Below are positions 3,560 through 21,527 of a stretch of 64,000 nucleotides of DNA, piece by piece (the stretch's first letter is position 1; each line of letters begins with the position of its first letter). Both the position numbers and the translations under genes were made by a program. Origin of the DNA: Candidatus Bathyarchaeota archaeon. Its GTDB lineage: Archaea > Thermoproteota > Bathyarchaeia > Bathyarchaeales > Bathycorpusculaceae. Location: contig OY970176.1 in NCBI GenBank assembly GCA_963707955.1, forward strand, positions 1,728,001 to 1,792,000. The letters are read 5' to 3'. The notes under the pieces were generated by a model. The model ran no database searches. It was not told the DNA's origin and worked only from the letters and a program-made list of their open reading frames with translations.

Positions 3560-6500
3560 ATGAAGAGAAAAGTAGTTGTTAGTTTCGTCCTGGTTATGTT
3601 GTTCTTGGTGTCGATGTTTCCATTAAGTGCTTTCCTTGGAGCAGCCAATTCTCACGGCAGCCCGGGACTTCTTGAGTCGCAGCCTACCGAAGACCCCGCT
3701 GACTGGTGGCCCATGTTCCACCACGACGTAACGCGGACAGGATACTCCACATCGACGGCGTCGACCACAAACCAGACTCTATGGAGCTACACAACAGGAG
3801 GTATGGTGGATTCTTCTCCTGCTGTTGTTGGCGGTTTTGTCTACGTGGGCTCATACGACGATAAGGTTTATGCTTTGAATGCTACGACGGGCGCGTTGAT
3901 ATGGAACTACACAACGGGCAGTGCGGTGGTTTCTTCTCCTGCCGTTGTTGGCGGTTTTGTCTACGTGGGCTCATACGACGATAAGGTTTATGCTTTGAAC
4001 GCCGCGACGGGCGCGTTAGTATGGAACCACACGACCGGCAGTGGTGTGTTGTCTTCTCCTGCTGTTGCCAGCGGCATGGTCTACGTGGGCTCAGATGACG
4101 ACAAAGTCTATGCTTTGAACGCTACGACAGGTGCATTCGTATGGAGCTACACGACCGGCAGTAGTGTGGGTTATTCTTCTCCTGCTGTTGTCGGTGGCAT
4201 GGTCTACGTGGGCTCATTCGACCACCAGGTTTACGCTTTAAACGCTGCGACGGGCGCGCGGATATGGAACTACACAACGGGCAGTGCGGTGGTTTCTTCT
4301 CCTGCTGTTGTTGGTGGTGTTGTCTACGTGGGCTCAGCTGACCACCAGGTTTACGCTTTGAACGCCGCGACGGGCGCGTTAGTATGGAACTACACAACCG
4401 GCAGTAGTGTGGGTTATTCTTCTCCTGCTGTTGTCGGTGGCATGGTCTACGTGGGCTCAAGTGACGATAAGGTTTATGCTTTGAACGCTACGACAGGCGC
4501 GTTAGTATGGAGGTACACAACTGGCTTTTACGTGTATTCTTCTCTTGCTGTTGCTGGTGGTTTCGTGTACGTGGGCTCAGATGACTACAAGGTTTACGCT
4601 TTGAACGCTGCTACGGGAGCATTCGTATGGAGCTACACGACCGGCAACTGGGTGTTTTCTTCTCCTGCTGTTGTTGGTGGTGCTGTCTACGTGGGCTCAG
4701 AGGATTACAAGGTTTACGCTTTTGGAACACCTCTTTCTGCTTCTATTTCGCCTGGCTCCTCAAAACTTGATGTTGGTCAGTCTCAACTGTTCACTTCAAC
4801 AGTCTCAGGCGGTACATCGCCATACACTTATCAATGGTATCTAAACGGCGCCCCAGTTTCGGGTGCTACGAATCCAGCTTGGACCTTTACACCTACATCA
4901 GCTGGTTCTTACATGATAAACATGGAAGTCAACGATAGCTTCGGAGTGCAGGCAACGTCTAACACTGCGACCGTTGCAGTAAGCAGTCAGCTTCCCTTTG
5001 ACTGGCCTATGTTCCGCTTCAACCCGGAGCACACAGGGACAACGCAGGACGTAACACCCCCACTCGAACTCACTTGGAACTTCACGACGGGCGACCTAGT
5101 CTATTCTTCTCCTGCCGTGAGTGGCGATTTCGTGTACGTTGGCTCACGCGATGGGAACATCTATGCCTTGGATGCCGTTAGTGGAACGCTGAAATGGAAA
5201 TACACAACGAGTGATTGGGTCCTCTCTTCCCCTGCCGTTAGTGGCGGTGTTGTTTACGTGGGGTCAGAGGATAGGAACCTCTACGCCCTGAACGCTGTTA
5301 CTGGAACGCTGGAATGGAACTACACGACAGGCGGCTATGTGGACTCTTCTCCCGCCGTCAGTGGTGGCGTCGTGTACGTCGGCTCAGACGATCAGAACCT
5401 CTACGCATTGAACGCGGCCACAGGAGTCCTGAAATGGAACTACACGACGGGCGGCTACATCGAGTCTTCCCCCGTTGTCAGCTGTGGTGTCGTCTACGTT
5501 GGCTCAGAGGACGGAAAAGTGTATGCCTTCGACGCGACTACCGGAGTCCTGAAATGGAACTACACGACGGGCGGCCTCGTCTATTCCTCGCCTGCAGTTA
5601 GTGGCGGTGTCGTCTACGTGGGTTCAGAAGACGATTACATCTATGCCTTGGACGCAACCACCGGAGCCCTTAAGTGGAGTCGCCCGTTGAGCGACTTTTC
5701 TGTCTATTCTTCTCCTGCCGTGAGTGGCGGCCTTGTTTACGTTGGCTCAGCGAACATCTTCGCTTTGAATTCTTCAACAGGAGACGTAAGTTGGAGCTAC
5801 ACGACAGATGGCAGCAACGCCCATTCTTCTCCCGCCGTTAGTGGCGGTGTGGTTTACGTTGGCTCAGACGATCACAACATCTACGCCCTCGATGCCTACA
5901 CCGGAGCATTCCTATGGAGCTACACGACGGGCGACCTTGTCTATTCTTCTCCTGCTGTTAGTGGCGGTTTCGTCTACGTTGGCTCATACGATGGGAAAAT
6001 CTACGCCTTCTCGCCGTCCGGTCCACAAACAAGATATCCGTGGCCCATGATCCACCACGACCTCACGCACACAAGCTACACTGAGAGCCCGGCACCCCAA
6101 ACAAACAACACAATGTGGAACTATGCGACAGGCAGCTATGTTTGGTCTTCTCCTGCAATCGCCGACGGTATGGTCTTCATCGGATCGACGGATAAAAATG
6201 TCTACGCTTTTAACGCGTCTACAGGCGCGAAGGTGTGGAACTACACAACCGGCAACCAGGTGGAAGATTCTTCTCCGGCTGTTGCTGATGGCAAAGTCTA
6301 CGTGGGGTCAGATGATCATAATGTTTACTGCTTGGACGCTTCCACCGGGGCTCTAGTTTGGAACTACGCGACAGGCAGCTATGTTTGGTCTTCTCCTGCT
6401 GTTGCTGGCGGTGTTGTCTACGTGGGTTCAGATGACCGCAAGGTTTACGCTTTGAACGCTACGACAGGCGTGCTAGTATGGAGCTACACGACCGGCAGTA

Positions 6501-8335
6501 GTGTGGATTCTTCTCCGGCTGTTGCCAGCGGCGTAGTCTACGTGGGCTCTGGTGACGACAACGTTTACGCACTGAACGCGACAACAGGCGCGAAGGTGTG
6601 GAACTACACGACAGGCAGCTATGTTTATTCTTCTCCTGCTGTTGCTGGTGGTAGGGTTTACGTAGGGTCGTACGATGGCAAAGTTTACTGTTTCGACGCT
6701 TCCACTGGGGCTCTAGTTTGGAACTACACCACAGGTAACTCGGTGTATTCTTCTCCCGCTGTTGCTGATGGCAAAGTCTACGTGGGGTCAGATGATCATA
6801 ATGTTTACTGCTTGGACGCTTCCACCGGAGCTCCAGTTTGGAACTACGCCACAGGTAACTGGGTATATTCTTCTCCTGCTGTTGCTGGTGGTAGGGTTTA
6901 CGTGGGGTCGTATGATGGCAAGGTTTACTGTTTGAACGCTTCCAGTGGGGCTCTAGTTTGGAACTACGCGACAGGCAGCTATGTTTTTTCTTCTCCTGCA
7001 ATCGCCGACGGTATGGTCTTCGTGGGTTCAGCAGACCATACTGTGTACGCATTTGGAGAGATCGTCAGGACAGAGGACTATGCGACGGTGCAGGCAGCAA
7101 TCAACGCTGCTCCCTCGGGAGCCACTGTTTTAGTCGCACCGGGCACGTACCATGAGTCTTTGATAATCAATAAGACAATAACTCTCCTTGGCATGTTAGG
7201 CAGTGAACCAACCTTTACTGGCGGCGGAAGCGGAATTGCCATAACGATCGTGCCGAGTGGATCTGGGTCGACTGTTGCTGGGATAGCGATAACCAGCTGG
7301 ACTCAAGGCATTCTAGTCAACGGAGCCAGTGGCTGCAACATCTACGGCAACATAATGTCTCTCATAAACCAAAACGGAATCAGCCTGCAAGGCTCCAAAG
7401 CCTCCAACAACCTTATCTACGATAACATATTCGAACAAGACACCGTCGCCGTCAGCTTAACTTCTTCAGCATCCAACAACACCATCACCGGCAACATGAT
7501 CAGCCTCAGCAGCATCGGCATCAACCTACAGTCCAGCGGCAACATCGTCTACGCCAACATAATGACCTACAACGTTGTTGCAATAAACATAACCAACTCG
7601 AACAACAACGTGTTCTTCCACAACGACTTCATCAGCAGCAACTACCAACTCACCATATCAAACTCAACGGGAAACGTCTGGGACAACGGCTACCCTAGCG
7701 GCGGCAACTACTGGAGCGATTACCTAACACAGAATCCGAACGCCACTGAAATCGACAGTTCAGGCATCTGGAACACGCCCTACGTCGTGGCTACAAACAA
7801 CGTGGACCACTATCCTCTTGTGAAGCCTTTCAGCCTGCACAACATCGAAATAGCAAGCTTTGTCTCGTCAAAAACCGTTATCGGACAGTCCTACACGGCA
7901 CAGATAAGCTTGGCAATCCTGGACGTCGGCACCTACGACGAAACGTTCACGCTGACCGTGGTCGCCAACTCAACGCTCATAACCCAGCAGACGGTTAGTC
8001 TGTCAAGTGGAGGCTCCACGACGCTGACGTTAACCTGGAACACTACGGACTGCGCCAAGGGCAACTACACAGTATTCGCCACAGCGGGCCCAGTTCCAAG
8101 CGAGGCTGACACTTCTGACAACAACCGCTCCGTCCCAGTAGTCGTAACCATCCCAGGCGACGTTGACGGCAACGGCAGAGTGGACATGGGCGACGTAGTC
8201 AGCCTCTGCACGGCTTTTGGTTCAACACTCGGACAATCAAGGTACGTTCCAAACTGCGACATAGAGGGCAACGGCAGAATCGACATGAGCGACATAATCA
8301 TCGCCTTACGCCACTTCGGACAACACTTGCCATAA
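3560..8335 (+). CDS. Secreted multidomain surface protein: three PQQ-like (BamB-type) beta-propellers, Ig/PKD-like module, NosD/pectin-lyase-like beta-helix, CARDB-like domain, C-terminal dockerin
   Basis: Signal peptide. About 24 repeats of 'W.YTTG..V.SSPAV.GG.VYVGS.D..VYA.NA.TG' in three blocks, each preceded by WPM(F/I). Also 'TVQAAINAA', N-rich beta-helix repeats, 'GGNYWSDY', and paired Ca-loops DVDGNGRVDMGD / DIEGNGRIDMSD. Confidence 0.9.
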   Translation: MKRKVVVSFVLVMLFLVSMFPLSAFLGAANSHGSPGLLESQPTEDPADWWPMFHHDVTRTGYSTSTASTTNQTLWSYTTGGMVDSSPAVVGGFVYVGSYDDKVYALNATTGALIWNYTTGSAVVSSPAVVGGFVYVGSYDDKVYALNAATGALVWNHTTGSGVLSSPAVASGMVYVGSDDDKVYALNATTGAFVWSYTTGSSVGYSSPAVVGGMVYVGSFDHQVYALNAATGARIWNYTTGSAVVSSPAVVGGVVYVGSADHQVYALNAATGALVWNYTTGSSVGYSSPAVVGGMVYVGSSDDKVYALNATTGALVWRYTTGFYVYSSLAVAGGFVYVGSDDYKVYALNAATGAFVWSYTTGNWVFSSPAVVGGAVYVGSEDYKVYAFGTPLSASISPGSSKLDVGQSQLFTSTVSGGTSPYTYQWYLNGAPVSGATNPAWTFTPTSAGSYMINMEVNDSFGVQATSNTATVAVSSQLPFDWPMFRFNPEHTGTTQDVTPPLELTWNFTTGDLVYSSPAVSGDFVYVGSRDGNIYALDAVSGTLKWKYTTSDWVLSSPAVSGGVVYVGSEDRNLYALNAVTGTLEWNYTTGGYVDSSPAVSGGVVYVGSDDQNLYALNAATGVLKWNYTTGGYIESSPVVSCGVVYVGSEDGKVYAFDATTGVLKWNYTTGGLVYSSPAVSGGVVYVGSEDDYIYALDATTGALKWSRPLSDFSVYSSPAVSGGLVYVGSANIFALNSSTGDVSWSYTTDGSNAHSSPAVSGGVVYVGSDDHNIYALDAYTGAFLWSYTTGDLVYSSPAVSGGFVYVGSYDGKIYAFSPSGPQTRYPWPMIHHDLTHTSYTESPAPQTNNTMWNYATGSYVWSSPAIADGMVFIGSTDKNVYAFNASTGAKVWNYTTGNQVEDSSPAVADGKVYVGSDDHNVYCLDASTGALVWNYATGSYVWSSPAVAGGVVYVGSDDRKVYALNATTGVLVWSYTTGSSVDSSPAVASGVVYVGSGDDNVYALNATTGAKVWNYTTGSYVYSSPAVAGGRVYVGSYDGKVYCFDASTGALVWNYTTGNSVYSSPAVADGKVYVGSDDHNVYCLDASTGAPVWNYATGNWVYSSPAVAGGRVYVGSYDGKVYCLNASSGALVWNYATGSYVFSSPAIADGMVFVGSADHTVYAFGEIVRTEDYATVQAAINAAPSGATVLVAPGTYHESLIINKTITLLGMLGSEPTFTGGGSGIAITIVPSGSGSTVAGIAITSWTQGILVNGASGCNIYGNIMSLINQNGISLQGSKASNNLIYDNIFEQDTVAVSLTSSASNNTITGNMISLSSIGINLQSSGNIVYANIMTYNVVAINITNSNNNVFFHNDFISSNYQLTISNSTGNVWDNGYPSGGNYWSDYLTQNPNATEIDSSGIWNTPYVVATNNVDHYPLVKPFSLHNIEIASFVSSKTVIGQSYTAQISLAILDVGTYDETFTLTVVANSTLITQQTVSLSSGGSTTLTLTWNTTDCAKGNYTVFATAGPVPSEADTSDNNRSVPVVVTIPGDVDGNGRVDMGDVVSLCTAFGSTLGQSRYVPNCDIEGNGRIDMSDIIIALRHFGQHLP
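3780..7050 (+). repeat. Intragenic ~120-123 bp tandem repeats encoding propeller blades, in three blocks (~3780-4725, ~5075-6010, ~6115-7050)
   Basis: Near-identical nucleotide units recur, e.g. tggaactacac..., tcttctcctgctgttg..., tacgtgggctca... Confidence 0.9.
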
Positions 8336-8513
8336 CGCGTGCAATGGGCCGTGCAGAACAACATCTTGGATGCCATAACACTCGTAAACGCCTTTCTCGC
8401 TACGCCTGGCAGTTCCAACTGGAACCCGAACGTAGACATCAACGGCGACGGCATCGTCGCACAGCTACGATGCCATAATACTTTCAGGCCACTTCAACCA
8501 ACACTGTCCATAA
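8336..8513 (+). pseudogene. Vestigial second dockerin of a different type immediately after the stop codon
   Basis: Reads NNILDAITLVNAFLATPGSSNWNPNVDINGDGIV, then after a 1-nt shift YDAIILSGHFNQHCP*. The first Ca-loop is missing. Confidence 0.8.
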
Positions 8514-8627
8514 CTGTTTTTCTTTGCGTGTTGGGAAGTAAGCGCGAGCTAGTTGGTTTGAAGAGATACTTAAATAAAAATAGCTGCATGTTTAAGATCG
8601 ACAAAAACTATGTTGAAAGATGGGAAA

Positions 8628-9647
8628 ATGAAGGTTAAGGCACGAAGAGGCTACTGCTTAGGAATCGAATCAACGGCTGACGACTTCAGCGTTGGAGTGT
8701 TGACGTTTGACGGTGAAATACTGGCGAACGTGATAGACGCTTACGTGCCGATTGAAGGTGGCATCCATCCGCGAGAGGCGGCCAGGCATCATGCTGACGT
8801 GGCGAGTAAAGTTCTTCGAGAGGCTTTCGCAAAATCTGGGATAAGGCCGAAAAGCTTGTCTGTCTTGGCGTTTTCTCAGGGTCCAGGTTTAGGTCCGTGT
8901 CTGCGCACTGGAGCAACTGTGGCCCGGGCTTTAGCATCTTACTTGGGCATTCCGCTTGTCGGAGTGAACCATTGCATAGCGCACATTGAGATAGGTAAGC
9001 TTAGAGCTGGCGCCAAGGACCCTGTGACGCTGTATGTTTCTGGCGGCAACACGATGGTCGCAGCCTTTGAATCTGGGCGTTACCGGGTTTTCGGCGAGAC
9101 GTTGGACATCGCTCTGGGAAATTGCCTTGATGTTTTCGCGAGGGAGGCAGGGCTGCGTCAAAGTGCAGGCATGCCGTTTGGTGCTGTGATAGAGAAGCTC
9201 GCGTTAGACGGGAAGAAGTTGATTGCGTTGCCCTACGCGGTTAAGGGCATGGATGTGTCCTTGAGTGGTCTGTTAACGGCGTCCGTTGCTCTGCTTAAGA
9301 AGGCAGACTGCAGGCTTGAGGACCTATGCTACAGTCTTCAGGAAACGGCTTTTTCGATGGTGACCGAGGTGACTGAAAGGGCTCTTGCTCACACTGGGAA
9401 GAAGGAGCTTCTCTTGACTGGCGGCGTGGCTGCTAACAGAAGGTTGCAGTCGATGATCAGAGCCGTGGCCGAGGAGCATGGCGTCAGGTTCGAAACGGTG
9501 GAGACGCAGTTTGCGGTGGACAACGGTGCGATGATTGCTTGGACTGGGGCTCTGGCTTACACTCATGGTGTTGTTACGCCGGTGGAGAAGAGTTTTGTCA
9601 GGCTGAGGTGGCGGCCTGAAGAGGTTGAAGTTCCGTGGGCAGAGTGA
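8628..9647 (+). CDS. kae1: KEOPS N6-threonylcarbamoyladenosine synthase Kae1
   Basis: LGIESTA, GGIHPREAARHH, GPGLGPCLR, VNHCIAHIEIG, VSGGNT, GETLDIALGN, DNGAMIAW. Confidence 0.95.
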   Translation: MKVKARRGYCLGIESTADDFSVGVLTFDGEILANVIDAYVPIEGGIHPREAARHHADVASKVLREAFAKSGIRPKSLSVLAFSQGPGLGPCLRTGATVARALASYLGIPLVGVNHCIAHIEIGKLRAGAKDPVTLYVSGGNTMVAAFESGRYRVFGETLDIALGNCLDVFAREAGLRQSAGMPFGAVIEKLALDGKKLIALPYAVKGMDVSLSGLLTASVALLKKADCRLEDLCYSLQETAFSMVTEVTERALAHTGKKELLLTGGVAANRRLQSMIRAVAEEHGVRFETVETQFAVDNGAMIAWTGALAYTHGVVTPVEKSFVRLRWRPEEVEVPWAE

Positions 9648-10309
9648 GTTCGCCAGTGTTGATCATGAAGGGGGCTGAGGCTAATCTCTACCTTGCAGAT
9701 TGGCATGGCAGAAGGGCAGTGATGAAGAAACGTCTGCCCAAGGAGTACAGGCCGCAGAAGCTTGATGAGCAGATTCGCAGGTACAGAACGATTCATGAGC
9801 CGCAGTTGATGCATGAGGCAAAGAGGGCTGGCGTGCCAACGCCGATGATCTTTCTGGTCGACGTGAAGAACACGACGATAATCATGGAGTACATCGAAGG
9901 AAAACAGGTGAAACAGCTGCTGAATGCGATCTCTGAGGGTGAGAGACAACGCTTGTGCTTCAGGATTGGCCAGTTGATAGCGAAACTTCACGAGTGCGGC
10001 TTGATCCATGGCGATTTGACCACGTCGAACATGATTGCAGGCTCAAGCAGGAGGGTTTTCTTCGTGGACTTCGGGCTTGGCGACAGGAGCGGAGAGGTTG
10101 AGGCGAGGGGCGTTGACCTGCACTTGATGAAGAGGGCCCTTGAAAGCACGCATTACGAATTCGCTGAGACTTGTTTTAAGTCTGTTTTGGCCGGTTACGA
10201 AGGCGTGTTAGGCGCGGGAGCAGCAAAAAGTGTTTTAGACAAAATCAGGGAAATAGAGAGGAGGGGACGCTATGTCGCGGAGAGGAAACAGGAAGAGTCT
10301 TCAGCTTAA
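9644..10309 (+). CDS. bud32: KEOPS kinase/ATPase Bud32
   Basis: KGAEA, HGDLTTSN, VDFGL, VDLHLM, IERRGRY; overlaps the kae1 stop (GTGA). Confidence 0.95.
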   Translation: MSSPVLIMKGAEANLYLADWHGRRAVMKKRLPKEYRPQKLDEQIRRYRTIHEPQLMHEAKRAGVPTPMIFLVDVKNTTIIMEYIEGKQVKQLLNAISEGERQRLCFRIGQLIAKLHECGLIHGDLTTSNMIAGSSRRVFFVDFGLGDRSGEVEARGVDLHLMKRALESTHYEFAETCFKSVLAGYEGVLGAGAAKSVLDKIREIERRGRYVAERKQEESSA

Positions 10310-10877
10310 AGGCCGCGTCATATTCTTTGCAACGAACAACGTTAACAAGTTCGATGAAGCCCGCCGGGTCCTAGCCGAATACAACGTAGCCGTTGGCATG
10401 CTAAGAGTGAAGTCGCTTGAGATTCAAAGTGAACGCCTCGAAGACATTGCCAAAGCAAGCGTCTTGAATGCTTTTGACAAATGTCGTCTGCCAATCATAG
10501 TGGAGGATGCCGGCTTGTTTATAGACGCTCTGAATGGTTTTCCAGGCCCCTACGCCGCTTACACGTACAAAACCGTTGGAAACCAAGGTCTGTTGAGACT
10601 GATGAAGAACGTCAAAGCCAGAAGGGCACACTTTGAGTCCGCGGTTGCATACTTCTCAGCGGAGCTGCAGTCGCCGGTCTGTTTTCACGGCGAAGTGATC
10701 GGAGAAATAGCGGATGAAGAGAAAAGGGGAAGCGGCAGGTCTGGCTTCGGTTTCGACCCGATCTTCAAGCCGCTGAGTAGCAGTAAGACTTTCGCTGAGA
10801 TGGGCATCACGGAGAAGAACGAGCATTCGCATAGGGCAAGAGCTTTACGAAAATTCGCAGAGTGGTACAAGAGCTAG
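10272..10877 (+). CDS. rdgB: Non-canonical purine NTP pyrophosphatase (RdgB/HAM1, dITP/XTPase)
   Basis: FATNN..K, VEDAGL..ALNGFPGPY, GFGFDPIF, SHRARA. Confidence 0.93.
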   Translation: MSRRGNRKSLQLKGRVIFFATNNVNKFDEARRVLAEYNVAVGMLRVKSLEIQSERLEDIAKASVLNAFDKCRLPIIVEDAGLFIDALNGFPGPYAAYTYKTVGNQGLLRLMKNVKARRAHFESAVAYFSAELQSPVCFHGEVIGEIADEEKRGSGRSGFGFDPIFKPLSSSKTFAEMGITEKNEHSHRARALRKFAEWYKS

Positions 10878-10878
10878 A

Positions 10879-11346
10879 GTGCTTCAGCCTCAGCCAGCGC
10901 GCGCGCCTACGCACGTCTGCATAAGTATTGACCCAGCAGCGGACTACGCCACAAGGTTCGTGCAGTACAACGCACACGAGTGCACGCTAGATGAGGCTCT
11001 TGAGGCGCTCAGAACGAGCCATGGAGGCGGGCTGGTGCATATGGCTTACACGATGAAAGGCGAGGATCGTGTTTCATTAGTCTGTAGTTGCTGCCCCTGC
11101 TGTTGCCACACGTTGGGCGGGCTTTTGCGCCACGGCATAGCCACTCAAGTTCTAACGTCCCGATTCATCGCGGAGCAAGACTATGACAGATGCAAAGCGT
11201 GCCGCAAGTGTGCGGACCGATGCGTTTTCGGAGCCCGAGACTTCATAGAAGGCAGACTTCAGTATGACCATTCCAAGTGCTTTGGCTGCGGCCTCTGCGT
11301 CTCAACCTGTCCTACAAGCGCGATAACTCTTGCGCCCCGACGATAG
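10879..11346 (+). CDS. 4Fe-4S dicluster ferredoxin-like protein, probably N-terminally truncated
   Basis: VCSCCPCCC plus CKACRKCADRC and CFGCGLCVSTCP. The start lacks an SD-like site and overlaps a (CG)5 tract. Confidence 0.7.
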   Translation: MLQPQPARAPTHVCISIDPAADYATRFVQYNAHECTLDEALEALRTSHGGGLVHMAYTMKGEDRVSLVCSCCPCCCHTLGGLLRHGIATQVLTSRFIAEQDYDRCKACRKCADRCVFGARDFIEGRLQYDHSKCFGCGLCVSTCPTSAITLAPRR

Positions 11347-11705
11347 CAGCTTTCGCCAGCACTTCCTGCATTTTGAGAACCCTGAAGAGTTCAACTTGAA
11401 GATAAACGGTTTCCTTTCGAAACAAACAGCATAGGCCTTTGAGCCCGCAAAATGTTGGTTGGTTGGGGTGAAGTTTTGTCCCAAACCCGAGGCTTTGATT
11501 CGGTGATTGCAACCTTGAATGGTTGTTGAAATTGTGTGATTTCTCTTATCGTGAGTTTCCTTTATCACTATGTCTTGAAGGGCTTTGGATATTCAAAAGG
11601 GATTAAAGATTTGCTGATACTCTAGTGCAGGGTAAATGTGCCCTATTCTTTCGTCTCAGCGCGCGGTATCGCGCTAGCACAAAGAAAAAAAGGATGGTGG
11701 TTGGT

Positions 11706-12209
11706 TTACTCCGCGAGTTTCTTTTTTAAGAATTCTCTTCGGTCTTTTCTGTTTAGTTTTTCGATTTCTGCTTTGTGTTTTTCGCGAATCAGTTTCAGCT
11801 TGCAATTGGTGTACAGCGCATCATACACGGGGCTTGCCTTAGCGATGGTTTCATAATCGTCTTTTGATACAATGCCAAAACCGGTCATAATGGCTTCCAT
11901 TCCTGCGGATTCGGCAGCCATCTCCATTTTGTCCGTGTCGGCAGCTCGGACGATTTTTGCCAACTCCAGGACTGCAGGATCCTTTACCTTATACTTGTCT
12001 ATAATAGCGTCGAAACTGCACTTGTCTCCGTGATGTCCGAGTTCGACTCCTGGCGCATCGTAGGGTATTGCCTTCTCTTTTTTGACGGTTTCTTCAATTT
12101 TTTCTACGGGAACGAAGAGGAATTCGGCTTTCGGGTCTATGAATCGTTTTATTAACCATGGGCATGCGGTTCTGTCCACGTGCACGAATAGTCTTGTTAC
12201 CCACTTCAT
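11706..12209 (-). CDS. ChrB-domain (chromate-resistance) protein
   Basis: MKWVTR..HVDRTACPWLIKRFIDPKAEFLFV, PYDAPGVELGH, CSFDA, LAKIVRAADT, YDALY; start reassigned to ATG at 12209. Confidence 0.85.
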   Translation of the reverse strand: MKWVTRLFVHVDRTACPWLIKRFIDPKAEFLFVPVEKIEETVKKEKAIPYDAPGVELGHHGDKCSFDAIIDKYKVKDPAVLELAKIVRAADTDKMEMAAESAGMEAIMTGFGIVSKDDYETIAKASPVYDALYTNCKLKLIREKHKAEIEKLNRKDRREFLKKKLAE

Positions 12210-12223
12210 GCTTTTCGTCAACA

Positions 12224-12433
12224 CTATTTGGCTTTCAATTCTTTGATGCGTTCCTGCACTGCTGCAAGCTCGTTCTTCAGTTCTTGTGCGTACTCTTCTA
12301 GTTTCTTGGTTTTCTCTTCTTTCGTTAGAAAGCGGCGAGTGAACTGCCCATATCCTTGATGGCCTTCGTGCCAACAATGCCTGCCATACCCATGGTGTTC
12401 TTCGCCATGTTCTTCACGCATACTTTTTTTCAC
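12224..12433 (-). CDS. Small protein with His/Gly-rich N-terminus and coiled-coil C-terminus
   Basis: EEHGEEHHGYGRHCWHEGH followed by RRFLTKEE..KLEEY...LKNEL; 14 nt upstream of the ChrB-like gene. Confidence 0.75.
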   Translation of the reverse strand: MKKSMREEHGEEHHGYGRHCWHEGHQGYGQFTRRFLTKEEKTKKLEEYAQELKNELAAVQERIKELKAK

Positions 12434-12521
12434 ACCCTCTTATGCAGATTAACTACTTATCACAGTAGAATATCTATTTGCATAAGTTTAACGTCAAGAT
12501 GAGTTCAAGCTGGTTTGCGGC

Positions 12522-13760
12522 ATGAATATTACGTCTGACAAAGTGGGAAAAGCCGTTTTTTGGACACTGTGCGTAATGGGAGTCTTTGCAATCCTTAGCT
12601 CGACAATGTCCAAGACTCTGCTTAACCCCTTTGCCATTACGCTGGGCACGCCTACTGATTGGTCAGGCTTTGTGGGTGCAGCTTCAACGATACCTGGCAT
12701 TCTGGTCAGTCTCCCTGCGTCTTCGCTTTCCGACATTTATGGCAGAAAGAAGTTCCTACTAGTATCAGGCTTCGTGTTTGCAACCGCACCTTTCTTCTAC
12801 CTTTTCATATCAACATGGTGGCAGCTCATACTCGTCAGGTTCTACCACGGGTTTGCAACTGCCATCTTCGTTCCCGTGGCCGAAGCTTCGATGGCCGAGT
12901 TGTTTCCGTCCCAGCGGGGGGAACGCATATCACTCTTCACGTCTGCAACGTACGTCGGCAGAAGCATCGCACCTTTCCTCGGCGGATACATACTGTTCAG
13001 CACCGCAAGTACTTCTGACCCTCTGTACAACTATCACGTCATGTACCTTGCAGTCGCAGCGGCTGGGCTGGCTGCCTTCGTCATGGCACTGCTGTTTCTA
13101 GCTGAGAGAAAGCCACCCATGGTCGCGGCGTCGAGAAAGCAAGATACTTTAAGGCGGATCTACGTTGGCTGGGGCGCTTTGGCCAAGAATCGTGCCGTGC
13201 TGACTGTCAGTTTTGTGCAAGCCAGCTTGTACTACTCATTCGGCGTAGTGGACTACTTTCTCTCTGGATACTTGAAGGATACACTGCATTTTGACTTCTT
13301 CTCGACGGCCGCTGTTTCGGGCAGCATAATCGTGCTTGCGATCTTCGTCAGAGCTTACATGGGAAGAGTCTCGGACAGAACGGGAAGACGGACACCGATA
13401 ATCGTTGGTCTATTAGTGTGTTCCGCCCCGCTGATAGCGTTGCCATACACTTCGGACCTTAGGATAATCTTGCTGCTCTCGCTCGTGTACGGGTTCGGCT
13501 TCGCTACGGCCACAGCATCCACGTGTCCTCTGATGACAGAGCTTGCTCCGAGCCAATTGGTTGGCACTTCAACGGGTTTTCTGGACACGATGATGGATGT
13601 GGGGCAGACAATTGGCCCTATAGTCGGCGGGTTCATCCTTGGAACGAGCTTTGGATACTTTGGCCTATTTCTGTCGCCCACTCTGGTCCTGCTCTCTGCT
13701 TGCCTAGTCTTTGTGCTGTCAGGAGTTGCGAATAGAAGAATCAACCGCGTTGAGGTCTAA
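12522..13760 (+). CDS. MFS transporter
   Basis: About 12 hydrophobic segments; motif A variants SLSDIYGRKK and GRVSDRTGRR. Confidence 0.92.
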   Translation: MNITSDKVGKAVFWTLCVMGVFAILSSTMSKTLLNPFAITLGTPTDWSGFVGAASTIPGILVSLPASSLSDIYGRKKFLLVSGFVFATAPFFYLFISTWWQLILVRFYHGFATAIFVPVAEASMAELFPSQRGERISLFTSATYVGRSIAPFLGGYILFSTASTSDPLYNYHVMYLAVAAAGLAAFVMALLFLAERKPPMVAASRKQDTLRRIYVGWGALAKNRAVLTVSFVQASLYYSFGVVDYFLSGYLKDTLHFDFFSTAAVSGSIIVLAIFVRAYMGRVSDRTGRRTPIIVGLLVCSAPLIALPYTSDLRIILLLSLVYGFGFATATASTCPLMTELAPSQLVGTSTGFLDTMMDVGQTIGPIVGGFILGTSFGYFGLFLSPTLVLLSACLVFVLSGVANRRINRVEV

Positions 13761-14076
13761 TGTAGAGCGCGCGTCTGGGACGATTGGGATAAGGAAGCTA
13801 TCAGACTTGACTTTGACGATGGGCACTTTAGAATAAAGCGCGCGCATTCTTCTCCAACGCACTCCGTGTTCATGTATGATGGTATAGGTATGGATGTATG
13901 TGTAGGTGTAGGAGAAGGAGTGAGCGTGGTCAGAGTGGAGCAGCTGGTCACAGAGTGGAGTAGGGACCCTAGGCAGTGGTTGAGCATGAAATATGACTTT
14001 ACTTTAAACCCAGACCCCAAAACAATTATTTAACAAGCCCGCGCCTTAATAAAAAAATGGAAATATTTGTTGGTTT

Positions 14077-14745
14077 TTAGACCCGTGTTGGCGTTGGCGG
14101 TGGAGGAGCCATTGTTGCTACAGGTTGTTCTGGTTGAGGTTTTATTTGGTAAAAGGCAATCGCAATCAATAGTATAGCGATCCACATTAGGAGGAAACCT
14201 ATGAGAATTATTGATAGAAATGCACCTATGAGTAGCAGTAGAGCTGCAGTTGAGAATAAACCTACGCTTGTTTTTGCTGAAAGAGTCTTTAGTGATCGTC
14301 TAGCAAAGAAAGCTGCAATTATAGCAAAAATCCACAATATAAATAATACTAAGAGTACTGATCCAACTATGGGCAAGACGTCACTTGTTTTTAAATTCGA
14401 GGTGGTTGGTGTTAACCCTGAGAGCGTTGACCACTTGCCGTCCCAAGTTGGAAAGATTTTGTGTAGGAAATCCGTTAGGATGGATGTGTAAAAAAACAGA
14501 TAAACGATTACTGCTCCTGCAATTACGATGCCTACTATGCCTGCGACTAAGCCGTATATGGAATTGTTGGTTATTCCGCTTTCCTTGTAATAGTCTGCAA
14601 AACCATGCAGAGCAACCAGAACGAGTATCAAGCCGACGAGTGCAATTATTCCCAGAAAAGGTTGACCGCCCGGTATTGGTATAAGTCCTATGAACATCAG
14701 TATTGCGCCTATGCCGCCTAAGTTCTTGCTTGATTCAAGATTCAT
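14077..14745 (-). CDS. DUF996-family membrane protein
   Basis: K.LGGIGAILM N-terminus, 'GLFSTAALLLLIGAFL.II.IG', Pro-rich tail. Confidence 0.75.
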   Translation of the reverse strand: MNLESSKNLGGIGAILMFIGLIPIPGGQPFLGIIALVGLILVLVALHGFADYYKESGITNNSIYGLVAGIVGIVIAGAVIVYLFFYTSILTDFLHKIFPTWDGKWSTLSGLTPTTSNLKTSDVLPIVGSVLLVLFILWIFAIIAAFFARRSLKTLSAKTSVGLFSTAALLLLIGAFLSIILIGFLLMWIAILLIAIAFYQIKPQPEQPVATMAPPPPTPTRV

Positions 14746-14795
14746 CGTTTTTTCCTCTAGTTTTTTGTCATCTTATTTAAAATAAAAGCTTTTTC

Positions 14796-14957
14796 ATGCC
14801 TTGGGTCAACGTAGATGAATCCATTTTCAACGACGTGAACGATGAGTTTCTTGTGAAAGTAGCATAGACATTAGAAGAGGCGACCAAATTACTTGAGGTC
14901 GACTTTGGATACGTGACTGAAATGGATGGAAAGATGCTGTTCAAGAAGAGGAAGTGA
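14796..14957 (+). pseudogene. Remnant resembling the C-terminus of a tyrosine recombinase/integrase
   Basis: Translates WVNVDESIFNDVNDEFLVKVA*TLEEATKLLEVDFGYVTEMDGKMLFKKRK*, with an in-frame TAG at 14865. This resembles the recalled 'EF.VKVA...EEA..LLEVGFEYV....G..LFRKRK' tail of Bathyarchaeia-type integrases. Confidence 0.6.
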
Positions 14958-14995
14958 ATGAAGGCGGCGGTCACTTTTGAAAAAGAATGGCTACT

Positions 14996-15003
14996 TTTAA
15001 ATA
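14996..15003 (+). promoter_or_regulatory. Putative TATA box of rps15
   Basis: TTTAAATA about 37 nt before the start. Confidence 0.55.
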
Positions 15004-15039
15004 TGCGTGCGCCCTCGCTGATACAGGTTCAAGGGATTA

Positions 15040-15483
15040 GTGATGCCCAAGCAGGAAAAGGGAAAGTCGCATCAGACGAGGCCTGTCGGCAAGCGGGCTC
15101 CGAGCTGGTGCAAGTATCAGCCTGAGGAAGTGGAGGCCCTCATCGTCAAGCTGGGCAAGGAGGGGCAATCGCCGAGCAGGATAGGGACGATCCTGAGGGA
15201 CCAGCATGCGATTCCCTTGTCGAAGCCGATAACCGGTAAGAGAGTTTTAGAGGTGCTCAAGGAGAACGAGCTGGCTCCATCATTACCTGAGGACTTGGCA
15301 AGTCTGCTTAACAAGGCTCACAGTCTGGGGCTTCACTTGGAGAAGAACAGGACCGACCTTTACAACAGAAGGGCGCTTCAGCTGATTGAAGCGAAGGTCC
15401 ACAAGCTCTCGAGGTATTATAAGCGTGAAGGTCTCTTGCCGCAGACGTGGAAGTACGAACCCAAAATAGCTTCAATAACCTGA
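15040..15483 (+). CDS. rps15: 30S ribosomal protein S15 (uS15, archaeal S15P/S13e)
   Basis: GKSHQTRP, SPSRIGTILRDQHAIP, LPEDL, LQLIEAKVHKLSRYYK. Confidence 0.96.
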   Translation: MMPKQEKGKSHQTRPVGKRAPSWCKYQPEEVEALIVKLGKEGQSPSRIGTILRDQHAIPLSKPITGKRVLEVLKENELAPSLPEDLASLLNKAHSLGLHLEKNRTDLYNRRALQLIEAKVHKLSRYYKREGLLPQTWKYEPKIASIT

Positions 15484-16423
15484 ACATCCCCGTTTTCCTA
15501 GCGTTTTCTAGCAGACATATCTGCTGGCGGCCTATGAAATGTGCAGTTTAAATCTTTAAATTCTCTCCTTTCAAAATCACTTTAGCCCGCTCACATTTAG
15601 AATGTTGTATTTTCCCATTTCAAATCTGTTCGAAGTGTCTTATCTCTCCATTTCCATTTTATAGAGAAGAAACTAAATTCTTCTCCGCGGTATGGACATG
15701 TTTTCTTAGTCATGTTTTCCACTATCGCGTGCGCTAAGCATGTACTAGTCGTCGTGGTCCCGGTCATGTGGAAACGTCGGATCATCGAACAGCATTAACC
15801 CGCCACTTCTAAGTCTTCTAGTCCTAGATCTTCTATCTCAGGTTCTTCCATGGCTTCCTGAAAACGGACTTTGCGCGCGCGACAGAGTTTTAAATAACAA
15901 CCGCAAAGAATATTGCGGAAGGTTGAGGGGGAAGGGCATATTTGTTTTCCCTTTCCTTTCTCCCGTTGCCTTTTTCCCTCTCCCTTCTCCTTCTCGTGCA
16001 ATCTTGACAATGAGGTTGCGCGCTATATGGCTTATGGAAGATAGTTCTAGAAGAATCATCTATTCAAGTCTAATTCAAGTTTACACAATGAGCGCGCGTT
16101 GTACCATCAAGAGCGCATACGGAGTGAGTGTCAGTGAGCGATGCGTTTCGATGACAATTCGCCAAAAGACGGTCAACTCTCTCCTTGATATGCTAATCCC
16201 ATGCGTTTCATGAATTCGCGCGCGATAAATCTGACCAGGATGAAGCTAATTGCGGCCGAAACGAACTTCGCTAGGGGCAAAGCCGTGCTAGCCATGTTTC
16301 TAAATAGACATGGTGACATAGTATCTTGTTTTCGCGCGCGTCAGACTCACGTATCGTGCAAAATACTTAAATAGCCCTAAGGATCCAATTGTATATTGCC
16401 AGACAAAGGGGAGAAAGGTAATT

Positions 16424-17934
16424 ATGAAGAGTCGTAAGACTGATGCTGTAGTATTGATTATCACCGTTATAATATTGGTAAGCACAATGGCAGTTTTTCG
16501 TGCCCATGGGGCATTCGCTCCTTGGCAAGGTTACGTTAAACCTGCATTCCCAGATTACGCTCCCAGCGGTATGCCGGATTTCGACGAGAAGCAGCCCCAG
16601 TTTACCACTGACGTAGGACACGTGCAATATTCTTGGTGTGTTCCAGTAGCTGTTGCAGATTCACTGTGGTGGCTTGACTCAGAAGGCGAATCAATAAACT
16701 ACTCGACTCCGGTACCTCCTCCAACGATTAGCGATCACTACAGCTTGGTAACTTCTTATGGTGGTTTGTGGGACGATCATGACCCCCAGAACGTTTTTGG
16801 ACTTGTCCCTGAATTGGCCGTGGACATGCACACAGATGGCATAGGAGTAGGCGGAGGCTATGTCGGGACGAGATACGCGGATATTCAGCCTGGGATTAAT
16901 ACCTACCTAACAAATCATGGTGTAGCCGGATTGTTCGAGGTTCATGGAGCGGATTTTGCCAACTTCAACTGGGTTGACCAACAGGTGGAGGCGTGTCAGG
17001 ACGTTGAGCTTTGTCTTGAATTCTGGTACTTCACCGGAAATGGTTGGCAACCGATTACAACACCAATCTTTGAATTGGGTCACTGCGTGACTTGCGCTGG
17101 CGTCAACTCCACAACAAGCCAAGTGCTTGTTAGCGACCCCTATTATAACGCCTTCGAAGCTGGTCTGGTTCCGGGACGCTCACCCGTCCCGCACGTAGAC
17201 ATCAGCACAAGTCTGACCACAACAATGCAACACTAGTGTCGCAAGATGCCTACAACGTGGTGCCATTCGTTTTTCCACCCGTGCTAACACCGCCTGGGTA
17301 CCCAGGGATGGTGTGGGAGTTGCAGAACTATCTGCAAATCAATGGCTTTACCATAGACCCGAACTGGCACGCTTTCATAAGAGGGGCGATTGCAACCTCA
17401 CCAATCCCAGTCCACGACGTAGCGGTCACGAACCTTACGACCTGCAAGGATGGATGTTTACCCTTTCGAACAGTTTCCCAAGGCTACACTGCACACGTGA
17501 ATGTGACTGTCGCCAACCACGGTAACGTGCCCGAGACTTTCAACGTAACTGCATACGCAAATGCCACTCTGATAGGCACCCAACAAGTCACCGGATTAGG
17601 TCCGACCAACATGTTTTCTCTCACGTATACATGGAACACAACTGGTTTCGCGCTTGGCAACTACACGTTGAGCGCCTACGCTTGGCCTGTTCTAGGAGAG
17701 ACGAACACGTCAAACAACAATTTCACAGACGGCGTAGTGGCAGTCACTATTCCAGGCGACGTTGACGGCAGCGGCAGAGTTGACATGGGCGACATAGTCA
17801 GCCTCTGCACGGCTTTTGGTTCAACACTCGGACAATCAAGGTACGTTGCAAACTGCGACATAGACGATAATCACAAAGTTGACATGGGCGACATAGTCAT
17901 CGCCTGCACCAACTTCGGACACCACTACCCATAG
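16424..17934 (+). pseudogene. Secreted papain-like (C39-like) cysteine peptidase + CARDB-like + dockerin, split by one frameshift near 17190-17215 (pseudogene or assembly error)
   Basis: ORFs 16424-17236 and 17236-17934 join via the -1 frame ...SDHNNATLVSQDAY. Signal peptide; putative triad WCVPVAVA / GHCVT / VSDPY; 'HDVAVTN' CARDB-like domain; dockerin ending HHYP. Confidence 0.75.
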
Positions 17935-18110
17935 CACGTACAATAACCGCGCAGAACAACATCCTGGATGCTACAACATTCGCTAACGTCTTCCTCGCTG
18001 CGCCTAGCAGTTCTAACTGGAACCCCAACGCGGACACAAACGGCGACGGCATCGTCGACATCTTGGACACAATGATCCTGTCAAACAACTTTCTAAAACA
18101 CTATCCATAA
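17935..18110 (+). pseudogene. Vestigial second dockerin of a different type after the stop codon
   Basis: Reads QNNILDATTFANVFLAAPSSSNWNPNADTNGDGIVDILDTMILSNNFLKHYP*; homologous to 8336-8513, including the junction. Confidence 0.8.
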
Positions 18111-18301
18111 CCCTTGGTGCCGACATGCGGGCGCGGATCGAAATTTCATGATTGGGAAGTATTCCCAGAGTGAGGCTGGCCACGACGTCCTTTTGCGACG
18201 CGCTCTAAGTCGTCCGCTAGTCCTTTCGTGACAAATATAGAAGTGTTAAAATTACAGATTTGATTAAATACTAAGTAGGGAGAAAGGGAGGAACGAGATG
18301 G

Positions 18302-21300: not shown

Positions 21301-21527
21301 CGGCAAACAACAATTTCACAGACGGCGTAGTGACAGTCACTATTCCAGGAGACGTTGACGGCAACGCCAGAGCTGACGTGGGCGACGTGGTCAAAATACT
21401 CTATGCTTTCGGATCAACACTCGGACAATCAAGGTACGTTCCAAACTGCGACATAGACGGCAACGGCAGAATCAATATGGGCGACATAATAATCGCCTTA
21501 CGCAACTTCGGAAAACATTACCCATAG
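18302..21527 (+). pseudogene. Large secreted protein (unknown, possibly alpha/alpha-barrel glycosidase-like domain; Ig/PKD-like; CARDB-like; dockerin) split by one frameshift near 18895
   Basis: Removing one A in 'ccaaaacac' joins 18302-18916 to 18990-21527 (NQTLQSQYESVIDSY...). Signal peptide, many N-x-S/T sequons, dockerin ending KHYP. Confidence 0.75.

Follow-up and report, generated by a model that had tools for sequence, protein, structure and literature searches.

Dockerin remnants behind the stop codons of two bathyarchaeal surface-protein genes point to C-terminal displacement of docking modules

Introduction

What does it mean when a gene for a secreted protein ends in one kind of docking module, and the decayed body of another kind lies directly behind its stop codon? 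This question is raised by a 64,000-nt stretch of a Candidatus Bathyarchaeota genome (contig OY970176.1, positions 1,728,001 to 1,792,000; hereafter the window), in which two otherwise unrelated genes, A and B, end in this way. Docking modules of this kind have been studied in bacterial cellulosomes, where positions 10, 11, 17, 18 and 22 of each dockerin repeat have been linked to species-specific cohesin recognition (PMC3413522). A possible parallel for the displaced module comes from the toxin tips of rhs (and CDI) systems, for which C-terminal displacement has been described, the incumbent C-terminus being shunted, silent, to a place just downstream (Jackson et al., 2009; PMC2935791). We consider it probable that the two loci arose through C-terminal displacement of dockerin modules, and that the resulting cassette spread by homologous recombination. 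The stranded tags would then be a fossil record of address-label swapping on secreted proteins among closely related archaea.

Two Genes, One Junction

Gene A (3560..8335, forward strand, as are all features below) encodes, according to the ORF list and Pfam, a 1591-aa secreted PQQ beta-propeller/NosD beta-helix protein with an M-type dockerin at its C-terminus, which reads ...GDVDGNGRVDMGD...CDIEGNGRIDMSD...FGQHLP. The module, with loops D-M-G and D-M-S, occupies 8147..8335, including the TAA stop at 8333-8335. Gene B (16424..17934) has a signal/TM N-terminus, a weakly C39-like region, a CARDB region and an M-type dockerin at 17746-17934 (D-M-G in each loop), and closes with ...GDVDGSGRVDMGD...CDIDDNHKVDMGD...FGHHYP and a TAG stop. 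That both genes end in a dockerin with M-G or M-S at Ca-loop positions 10/11, as first proposed, is plainly seen, and both loops of both genes fit the pattern D-x-D/E-x-N/D-x-x-V/I-D-M-G/S-D. The two duplicated 12-residue Ca loops and the helices of Pfam family PF00404 are present, with Dockerin_1 matches of 26.6 bits in A and 22.7 bits in B, the latter slightly below the cut-off of 22.9. The C39-like label given earlier to gene B holds only as a sub-threshold Pfam match (Peptidase_C39_2, E 0.029, 15.4 bits; cut-off 24). Gene B appears as two ORFs in the window, broken at ~17236, from two extra letters at 17210 and 17212 that are missing in the short-read contigs of two runs (X1 and X2); without them it is a single 502-aa ORF.

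Behind each stop, the original prediction placed a 5'-truncated, non-coding dockerin of a different type, preceded by a spacer common to both loci, and this arrangement was confirmed, with a spacer of 23-24 nt. In both remnants Ca loop 1 lacks its first 8-9 residues; they score 51.7 (A) and 70.7 bits (B) in a purpose-built dockerin HMM, both without that loop. At gene A the spacer (8336..8359) is followed by remnant A (8360-8513). At gene B the spacer (17935..17957) differs from that of A by 4 substitutions and 1 deletion, and holds a TAA; remnant B (17958..18110), a truncated dockerin of the I-L type, reads NILDATTFANVFLAAPSSSNWNPNADTNGDGIVDILDTMILSNNFLKHYP up to its old stop at 18108-18110. 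It lacks a start codon and is open throughout its own frame, which the 1-nt spacer deletion sets apart from that of gene B. Its helix 1 is nearest to remnant A, to gene X of the sister genome G010 (described below) and to the I-L type of a second sister, G007, while its tail is nearest to the G007 I-L type (locus L059, 81%). The whole block of dockerin, stop, spacer and remnant shows 82% aligned identity between A and B (mean column identity 89% in another alignment). By blastn the remnants occur at only these two places in the 2.35-Mb genome, matching each other at E 3.5e-32, so their resemblance is not due to chance. Short-read contigs from run X1 span junction A (record 4, 8298-10118, 1 differing letter) and junction B (record 8, 17876-18500, 0 differing letters); the runs that supplied these contigs may be the window's source sample.

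The same junction of stop, spacer and truncated dockerin was found at gene A, gene B, thermopsin gene X of G010 (also L189 and L191) and thermopsin gene Y of loci L192/L194. Since X and Y, both thermopsin genes, are perhaps one orthologous locus, the independent host genes of the junction number three rather than four. The spacer shows 6 differences in gene X, and positions 8336-8362 (spacer plus the next three bases) are identical to L192 and L194 at 27/27 nt. The spacer of A resembles no dockerin loop 1 (233 of 300 shuffles scored equally well), and no further copy with at most 5 substitutions was found in this genome. Spacer scans of genome and metagenome collections matched 4 and 5 stretches, of which 1 and 3, respectively, were dockerin loci.

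The Resident Tag of Gene A

The best orthologue of gene A is a gene of a third sister genome (G001:C16), with 84% amino acid identity over residues 474-1528 only. At the nucleotide level the two are 86.6% identical over window positions 6704-8195, and the alignment resumes at 8361; between these points gene A carries ~165 extra nt (8196-8360), comprising the body of the M-type module, the stop and the spacer. The G001 gene ends in ..VVVTIPGDINGDGTVDIYD...DIYDAIILAGHFNQHIP, an intact I-Y dockerin. The ancestor of I-L type that had been expected in a sister orthologue was thus found in part, as an intact old-type dockerin that is I-Y and not I-L. Gene A itself sits in a 10.1-kb stretch, ending at window position 8569, that is absent at the same place from G001, G007 and G010.

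Remnant A repeats this duality within its own length. Helix 1 and linker (NILDAITLVNAFLATPGSSNWNPNV, 8360..8434) are of the I-L type, nearest to G007 I-L dockerins (83% and 81%), with 61/75 matches to remnant B and 61/76 to gene X of G010, and just 51/75 to its own G001 orthologue. The first 25 nt of the second Ca loop (8435..8467) are identical to a G001 dockerin (L003, 25/25). The remnant keeps the frame of gene A's TAA up to position 8460, where one extra base, a C, shifts the frame; the short-read contigs report no indel at 8435..8467 and so do not contradict the frameshift. The tail (8468..8513; ..YDAIILSGHFNQHCP in the shifted frame, old stop 8511-8513) is a former I-Y type dockerin end, and 8460-8513 matches the G001 orthologue (L016) at 46/54, two other G001 loci (L032/L003) at 47/54, and remnant B at 35/54. 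Among 45 informative sites, the ratio of B-like to orthologue-like sites is 20:8 to the left of 8458-8467 and 3:14 to the right, and the maximum chi-square breakpoint falls there (chi-square 12.2, permutation p 0.0046), where the old dockerin is best conserved. Tests of the mosaic at the level of sets give weak support (Mann-Whitney: 5' part, p 0.023; tail, p 0.075). Judged by these affinities, remnant A is a recombinant, with a 5' part like remnant B and the G007 I-L dockerins and a tail like I-Y dockerins, including that of its own orthologue. The claim that both remnants are of the I-L type accordingly survives for B, while the second loop of A (V-D-S-Y-D in the shifted frame after 8460) derives from the I-Y type. 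The resident tag of gene A would have been I-Y, as in G001, and the I-L part would have arrived with the cassette. A T-rich run, tgtttttcttt, comes after remnant A.

Dockerin Dialects and Cohesins

Each of these close genomes, whose syntenic DNA is mostly 85-95% identical, has a dockerin dialect. At Ca-loop positions 9-11, D-I-Y stands in both loops of 19 of 26 modules in G001, and each of the 26 examined shows I-Y or I-F in one loop or both; G007 has N-I-L in both loops of 17 of 27 modules and I-L in at least one loop of 23. In the genome of the window position 10 is M in 15 of the 18 intact modules and none of the 18 has I-Y or I-L, leaving no old-type dockerin gene, and G010 is likewise M-type. 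Dockerins more than 50% identical in amino acids to the module of gene A were found neither among 30 matches in G001 nor among 29 in G007; the best identities are 69% in G010 and 61% in G018.

The cohesin proteins are distributed in a similar manner. Those encoded here are matched over their full length in G010 (82%) and at 42-48% in G018; G001 and G007 offer only partial matches of at most 38%. Pfam cohesin matches number 2 here, 16 in G001 and 25 in G007; a purpose-built HMM finds ~8 cohesin-like proteins in this genome. The distribution of the M-type dockerin follows one cohesin-protein family. The proposed re-addressing of docking specificity draws on this co-distribution and on the residue positions involved, and is to that extent plausible; the role of positions 10/11 would be carried over to archaea by analogy with bacterial cellulosomes (PMC3413522). 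Vertical inheritance with losses and lateral transfer of the M-type system are both compatible with these data, in which the order of branching among the four closely related genomes is ambiguous.

The Other M-Type Genes

The M-type module of gene A (8147..8335), presumably the incoming "new tag," shares 69-93% nucleotide identity with other M-type modules of the genome (blastn). Its likeness to genes B and D is patchy, climbing to 94-98% from ~200 nt before the stop: 50-65% in the upstream CARDB region, 94-98% in the first half of the module and 72-92% in the second half. A remnant follows only two of the eight M-type dockerin genes. Behind the other six, sequence after the stop is unrelated, with CGCG at most in common and neither spacer nor remnant. 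One of them, gene C (18990..21527), an 845-aa CARDB protein with an M-type dockerin at 21339-21527, served as a comparison case. No full-length orthologue of genes C, E and F was found in G001, G007 or G010, and a tag swap is therefore not demonstrable for these three, which look like fast-shuffling mosaics. Most M-type tags may have arrived another way, or their remnants may since have been deleted. As the route of a genome-wide switch, the remnant-bearing cassette is thus exemplified at two loci, and with only two of eight genes carrying a remnant it is not established as the main one.

A Model of Displacement and Its Alternatives

Both stretches behind the stops would be non-functional fossils of older dockerins, pushed past the stop as an M-type module recombined on. 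We infer a single origin of the junction, a direction of transfer and a change of binding partner. A composite cassette, consisting of M-type dockerin, stop, ~24-nt spacer and an old I-L dockerin without most of Ca loop 1, would have arisen once in an I-L-using lineage, probably by homologous exchange upstream and an illegitimate join downstream. Having dockerin-gene homology on both sides, it could be copied into other old-type dockerin genes, also across closely related species. At gene A, the upstream exchange would lie at the conserved boundary of CARDB linker and loop 1 (..VTIPGD.., ~8147-8195) and the downstream one in the second Ca loop of the gene's own I-Y dockerin (8458-8467), which would leave a remnant that is I-L in front and I-Y behind. 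The protein would thereby have moved from an I-Y/I-L cohesin network, as in G001 and G007, to the M-type network that G010 and G018 also use. The remnants would now be neutral DNA, eroding by frameshift and deletion and probably included in the 3'UTR of a transcript that reaches the old T-run. A bolder form, which we regard as doubtful, would make this a self-propagating tag-swap cassette (with the 27-nt form of the spacer), whose old tag is its own downstream homology arm, converting any old-tag gene within and between related Bathyarchaeia, and whose spacer, perfectly conserved across distant lineages, is a working part. If true, the code by which proteins dock outside the cell would be switched throughout the genome, along with the cohesin proteins that match it.

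The 3' ends might instead be alike by common descent: one ancestral gene would have received the M-type module ahead of an I-L dockerin, A, B, X and Y would have inherited the block by duplication and N-terminal domain swapping with no conversion of resident old-type genes, and the I-Y tail of A would stem from conversion at a later time by an I-Y dockerin. These surface-protein genes have no stable orthologues and are built as domain mosaics, A and B lie just 9.6 kb apart and are the only loci in the genome with the junction, and X and Y have a thermopsin body in common. We nevertheless hold this to be unlikely. The body of gene A is orthologous to the G001 gene up to ..VVVTIPGD, and it is the intact I-Y tail of that very gene which fits remnant A; the identity of A to B and D begins only at the dockerin boundary, and the position of the breakpoint is what homologous exchange with a resident tag would be expected to produce. 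A single block duplication, recognized from the outset as fatal to a tag swap, can likewise appeal to the two loci here, and against it stand the mosaic structure of remnant A, whose tail is from the gene's own ancestral dockerin, and the recurrence of the junction behind different genes, both in G010 and on metagenome contigs.

Very unlikely, in our judgment, is a functional spacer, with or without the remnant, that travels with M-type genes as a 3' signal for termination, mRNA stability or recombination. Such a role would suit its full identity between A and L192/L194, where the dockerins differ (D-M-R loops with insertions), the adjacent 65 coding nt are only ~72% identical (counted from the alignment), and blastn finds no counterpart of the flanking genes in this genome. 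It sits poorly with the degraded spacers of B and X, with its absence behind the other six M-type genes, with scans that found no lineage beyond those carrying the junction, and with the lack of a convincing hairpin on inspection by eye. A double dockerin translated by stop-codon read-through is scarcely credible and was rejected: spacer and remnant share the frame of the stop in A, X and Y, but the second module lacks the Ca-binding part of loop 1, is frameshifted in A, offset and preceded by a spacer stop in B, and breaks off early in X and Y, and the stops bypassed would be both TAA and TAG.

Likeness to Known Systems

As in rhs/CDI (PMC2935791), a C-terminal module gained laterally or from a paralogue, with its own stop, is joined to a conserved upstream part, and the old end lies silent downstream instead of being deleted; A and B both have this order, and the G001 orthologue retains the intact old-type end. 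On the lateral origin of the new tip, an M-type clade was found in G010 and G018 and not in G001 or G007, and gene A lies in the insertion noted above, with the branching order again ambiguous. The differences from the same account are several. The dockerin is carried by archaeal surface proteins as a docking tag of ~60 aa, and is no toxin accompanied by an immunity gene; each gene has one displaced piece and not an orphan array; the remnants are 5'-truncated with no copy of CARDB or loop 1, whereas displaced rhs/CDI tips keep a core fragment; and the composite here seems to have been copied onward with the old module as a downstream homology arm. Bacterial cellulosomes, as that source (PMC3413522) presents them, share the two-loop Ca-binding dockerin fold and residues 10/11 that vary from species to species while staying uniform in any one genome. 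Here the proteins are archaeal and non-cellulosomal (peptidases, PQQ propellers, CARDB), and the dialects differ between genomes as close as those compared above.

Two further comparisons concern silent copies beside expressed genes. A diversity-generating retroelement, with a VR/TR pair, was considered and set aside: remnant B shares only ~30% amino acid identity with the dockerin of gene B and is not a near-identical template. In Neisseria pilE/pilS, truncated unexpressed copies lie beside the expressed gene, with homology in common, and donate by silent-cassette gene conversion. The copies here are also truncated, unexpressed and adjacent to an expressed gene with which they share homology, but nothing suggests that they act as donors; they are decaying, in a genome without old-type genes. 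Mosaic tracts with a supported breakpoint, as gene conversion leaves them, are seen in remnant A and in the 94-98% M-type tracts. Such patchy tracts are also a feature of concerted evolution of multigene families by gene conversion; the unit here is a short C-terminal module on otherwise unrelated genes, and its replacement deposits a datable fossil past the stop. Paralogues within a genome are closer than orthologues between genomes, both in the dialect census and in four likely G001/G007 orthologue pairs, where the dockerin is 68-73% identical in nucleotides against 80-86% for the upstream flank and follows the dialect of its genome.

Genes A and B and the Dockerins Behind Their Stops

The genome around the window is a single contig of 2.35 Mb; its Kae1 gene has close relatives that without exception carry the label Bathyarchaeia or Bathyarchaeota. 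The product of gene A (3560-8335), a protein of 1591 aa, combines PQQ beta-propeller repeats and a NosD-like beta-helix with a dockerin at the C-terminus, as read from the ORF list and Pfam. Gene B, which encodes CARDB and a dockerin and stops at 17934, appears in the window as two ORFs (16424-17236 and 17236-17934) that become a single ORF of 502 aa once letters 17210 and 17212 are removed; both letters are missing from the short-read contigs of runs X1 and X2, and they probably reflect a strain variant or a mistake in the assembly. The N-terminal part of gene B gives only a sub-threshold match to Peptidase_C39_2 in Pfam. The use of dockerin positions 10/11 as recognition residues comes from an account of bacterial cellulosomes (PMC3413522). 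Position 10 is methionine in both Ca loops of both dockerins (D-M-G and D-M-S in A; D-M-G twice in B), hence the label M-type.

A spacer of 23-24 nt directly follows each stop (8336-8359 and 17935-17957) and leads into a second dockerin that starts with ..NILD and lacks the first 8-9 residues of Ca loop 1. Remnant A (8360-8513) is in frame with the TAA of gene A and has a surplus C at 8460. Remnant B (17958-18110), which has a TAA of the spacer in front of it, does not share the frame of gene B, but its own frame runs through without interruption. The two loci can be aligned as one block from the dockerin start to the second loop of the remnant. Short-read-assembled contigs span both junctions, without any indel at 8460, but these contigs are an assembly check rather than independent biology, since the runs are possibly the sample of origin. 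At 8266 the window has G and all four runs have C, which would make E to D in loop 2 of the gene A dockerin; the contigs with C may derive from paralogues. Behind the old stop of remnant A stands tgtttttcttt (T-run at 8517-8525), plausibly an archaeal terminator, so that remnant A is probably part of the 3'UTR. A stop with a stranded dockerin behind it in two surface-protein genes, the core of the original observation, is confirmed.

The Orthologue of Gene A and the Incoming Piece

Gene A and its remnant lie inside a 10.1-kb insertion (genome 1726446-1736569, ending at window 8569) that separates an FtsJ-like methyltransferase gene from Kae1 in this genome when it is compared with the close sisters G001, G007 and G010. 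A clostripain-family (C11) peptidase gene (window 2-2209) and, on the minus strand, a HAD hydrolase gene (2405-3214) lie in the insertion as well. Synteny with Kae1 yielded no orthologue of gene A, which is not beside Kae1 in the sisters; the FtsJ-like gene occupies that place. The best match to the body of gene A is instead a G001 gene at C16:32366-35542, with 84% amino-acid identity over residues 474-1528, and this gene ends in an intact I-Y dockerin (..CAKGNYTVSATAGPVASEADTSDNNRSLRVVVTIPGDINGDGTVDIYD...NGDGTVDIYDAIILAGHFNQHIP, then the stop). A sister orthologue with an old-type end therefore exists for gene A. At the DNA level the two genes align over window 6704-8195 (86.6%) and 8361-8512 (77.6%), which leaves gene A with about 165 extra nt that contain the M-type module body, the stop and the spacer.

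For gene B, homologues of the N-terminal domain end in I-Y dockerins in G001 and G009 (57-61% amino-acid identity) and in N-M-K dockerins in G008 and G004. The orthologue search extended to the further M-type genes C (18990-21527), E and F, which gave no more than domain-level matches in G001, G007 and G010.

When gene A is compared with genes B and D, identity is 50-65% in the CARDB region, 94-98% from the dockerin start and 72-92% in the second half of the dockerin; beyond the dockerin, A and B remain 76-88% identical through the remnant to about 8460 and are less alike thereafter. This profile places the incoming piece in gene A between about 8147-8195 and about 8460. It also makes the near-identity of the first halves younger than the junction, which points to ongoing conversion among M-type modules.

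Remnant A as a Recombinant

Among 84 dockerin modules aligned at the nucleotide level, helix 1 and the linker of remnant A (8360-8434) are closest to I-L dockerins of G007 (83% and 81%), to remnant B (61/75) and to the remnant of gene X, a thermopsin gene of G010 (61/76), and agree with its own orthologue at 51/75 positions only. Loop 2 opens with 25 nt that a G001 dockerin shares without a difference. In the tail (8460-8513), the closest sequences are I-Y dockerins of G001 (47/54) and the orthologue (46/54), as against 35/54 for remnant B. Read in the shifted frame, the second loop gives V-D-S-Y-D, which marks it as I-Y-derived.

A three-sequence breakpoint test on remnant A, with remnant B and the orthologue as parents and 45 informative sites, found B-like to orthologue-like sites in a ratio of 20:8 to the left of 8458-8467 and 3:14 to the right (chi-square 12.2, reached by 0.46% of 5000 permutations). 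The extra C at 8460 is located at this breakpoint. The test is clearer than a Mann-Whitney comparison of the parts of remnant A with all G001 and all G007 dockerins, which was weak (p 0.023 and 0.075). Remnant B is I-L-like along its whole length, with a tail nearest to a G007 module (L059, 81%). It had also been proposed from synonymous changes that the remnants diverged while still coding. A hand count of about 7 synonymous and 8 non-synonymous changes in 33 codons is too small to reject neutrality, and the mosaic accounts better for the tails, which are indeed different yet dockerin-like because they come from distinct resident dockerins.

Frequency in the Genome

Whole-genome blastn and tblastn searches found remnants at these two places only. 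M-type dockerins are present at eight loci (A, B, C at 21339-21527 and five outside the window) with 69-93% nucleotide identity to A, and the DNA after the stop is unrelated in six of the eight. A dockerin HMM built here gave 21 genome matches: the two remnants, an orphan near 370.7 kb and 18 intact modules. I-Y and I-L are absent from positions 10/11 of all 18, and position 10 is methionine in one or both loops of 15. The orphan (L088, genome ~370707-370853, minus strand) is a 5'-truncated dockerin of 54 aa from stop to stop (..LSARDAILAAKAFGAHPGDPNWNPEADLNGDGTVEGFDIVILANFGHTA, then the stop); it is intergenic and has no dockerin gene in front of it.

Three other origins were considered. A tRNA or integration site was rejected for A and B, genome 1724001-1750000 containing no tRNA. 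The spacer is not a repeat found elsewhere in the genome, there being no further copy with up to 5 substitutions. Nor is it a decayed Ca loop 1, since the spacers, compared by local alignment with the loop 1 region of every dockerin module in the alignment, did no better than shuffles (the best score was reached by 233/300 for spacer A and 215/300 for spacer B).

The Same Junction in Other Lineages

Gene X (G010:C31), a thermopsin-CARDB gene, has an M-type dockerin; behind its stop come the spacer, identical to that of gene A at 21/27 positions, and 75 nt from the front of the remnant, then unrelated DNA and a tRNA-Pro. A spacer pattern scan led back to the X locus, in one genome record and in one metagenome contig (L189 and L191), and also to gene Y, another thermopsin-CARDB gene, on two metagenome contigs that are 98% alike (L192 and L194). 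The dockerin of Y is of a different kind, having D-M-R loops with insertions; its stop is followed by a spacer identical to that of gene A at 27/27 positions, then by about 20 nt, perhaps the beginning of the remnant, and then by unrelated DNA. The remaining genes of L192 have no blastn match in this genome. Five further scan matches (L186, L187, L188, L190 and L193) are without dockerin context and were set aside as chance.

The tRNA-Pro (L028:7121-7195) stands right behind gene X, and a tRNA-Gly (L085:1119-1196) right behind the M-type gene of this genome at about 2020 kb. Past X, the flank matches genome 609503-610910 at 91% identity; this genome has no such gene at that site. Taken together, these suggest island-like insertion sites.

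Dockerin Dialects Among Close Relatives

The close relatives among the ten other genomes of the genus are G001, G007 and G010, with 94-95% amino-acid identity to this genome in Kae1 and mostly 85-95% identity in syntenic DNA. One syntenic stretch put G010 farthest, a ranking that we dropped when 40 kb more showed the three sisters to be similarly distant. With dockerin plus remnant DNA as the query, the remnant part was matched 18-20 times in each of G001, G007 and G009 and 12 times in G003; the M-type part had no full-length match in G001 or G007.

A census of residues 9-11 in both loops of each module covered 24 of G001's 31 Pfam dockerin places, plus two more from the DNA search, and 27 of G007's 30. 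D-I-Y occupies both loops in 19/26 G001 modules, and none of the 26 lacks I-Y or I-F in both loops; N-I-L occupies both loops in 17/27 G007 modules, and I-L stands in one or both loops of 23/27. The modules sampled from G009, G003 and G002, few in number, are I-Y and the few from G008 and G004 N-M-K, and the dockerins of G010 are M-type. The best amino-acid identity to the module of gene A is 69% in G010 and 61% in G018, a genome of another genus in the same family; G001 and G007 dockerins never exceed 50%. Dialects are thus genome-specific: Bathyarchaeia genomes of this degree of syntenic identity use three of them, each uniform across dozens of unrelated secreted proteins.

In four likely orthologue pairs of G001 and G007, the upstream 237-327 nt are 80-86% identical and the dockerin 68-73%, and each dockerin matches the dialect of its own genome. 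Such a pattern is that of concerted evolution. G007 also holds a 5'-truncated stranded dockerin of another type (L053:4685-4850, G007:C2; ..LSARTLDAKQGDPNWAAASTYDLNGDGKIDILDVGMVAVNYG..), about 115 nt past the stop of an I-L dockerin gene, which may indicate recurrent displacement in the genus. In G001, a half dockerin with a single Ca loop (L050, G001:C5:21400-22300; ..GDINGDGTVDIYDAIIQSGHFNQHYP, then the stop) looks as if it were the product of recombination between its two repeats.

Mechanism and Significance

Cohesin-dockerin pairs are a standard example of a modular protein-assembly code, and to our knowledge the way in which such a code changes without breaking the system has usually been inferred from end states only. 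Here an intermediate is kept in the DNA: a new module and its stop stand ahead of a truncated old module that is intact in the sister orthologue, the junction is common to several genes and lineages, and a mapped recombination breakpoint lies within the old module. We infer a single origin of the composite in an I-L lineage, from which it would have been copied into gene A via exchanges, upstream in the ..IPGD/loop 1 region and downstream in loop 2. The protein of gene A would then be re-addressed by its new dockerin, given the predicted specificity, and the remnants would be neutral.

The proposed tag swap largely holds up, by the orthologue, the junction in other lineages and the breakpoint, on a scale narrower than was envisaged. 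C-terminal displacement in rhs tips is the closest described process (PMC2935791). Searches of the open-access literature returned nothing linking dockerin and gene conversion to the replacement of dockerin tags, and among the papers listed on Bathyarchaeota no title or abstract contained dockerin or cohesin. Specificity switching, tag-scaffold co-evolution and the recombination-driven rewiring of archaeal surface proteomes now become testable.

Cohesins

In this genome Pfam finds 2 cohesin matches, against 16 in G001, 25 in G007 and 4 in G010 (63% complete), and 18 dockerin matches, against 31 in G001 and 30 in G007; G001 and G007 are as complete as this genome. Most cohesins have thus been dropped in one lineage (2 Pfam matches against 16-25). 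A genus-specific HMM detects cohesin-like domains in about 8 proteins here, including that of the M-type gene H. Proteins of 546 and 996 aa, at about 2212.8 kb and 473.8-476.8 kb, carry cohesin domains of this genome. The two clear cohesin proteins have a full-length match of 82% in G010 and matches of 42-48% in a gene cluster of G018, as against partial matches only, at up to 38%, in G001 and G007. M-type dockerins and this cohesin-protein family are therefore co-distributed, which lends circumstantial support to a separate docking network for the M-type.

Elsewhere in the window, about 200 nt at ~60083-60283 resemble a small dispersed repeat, with at least 14 matching places in G001 and 3 in G007 (82-90% identity).
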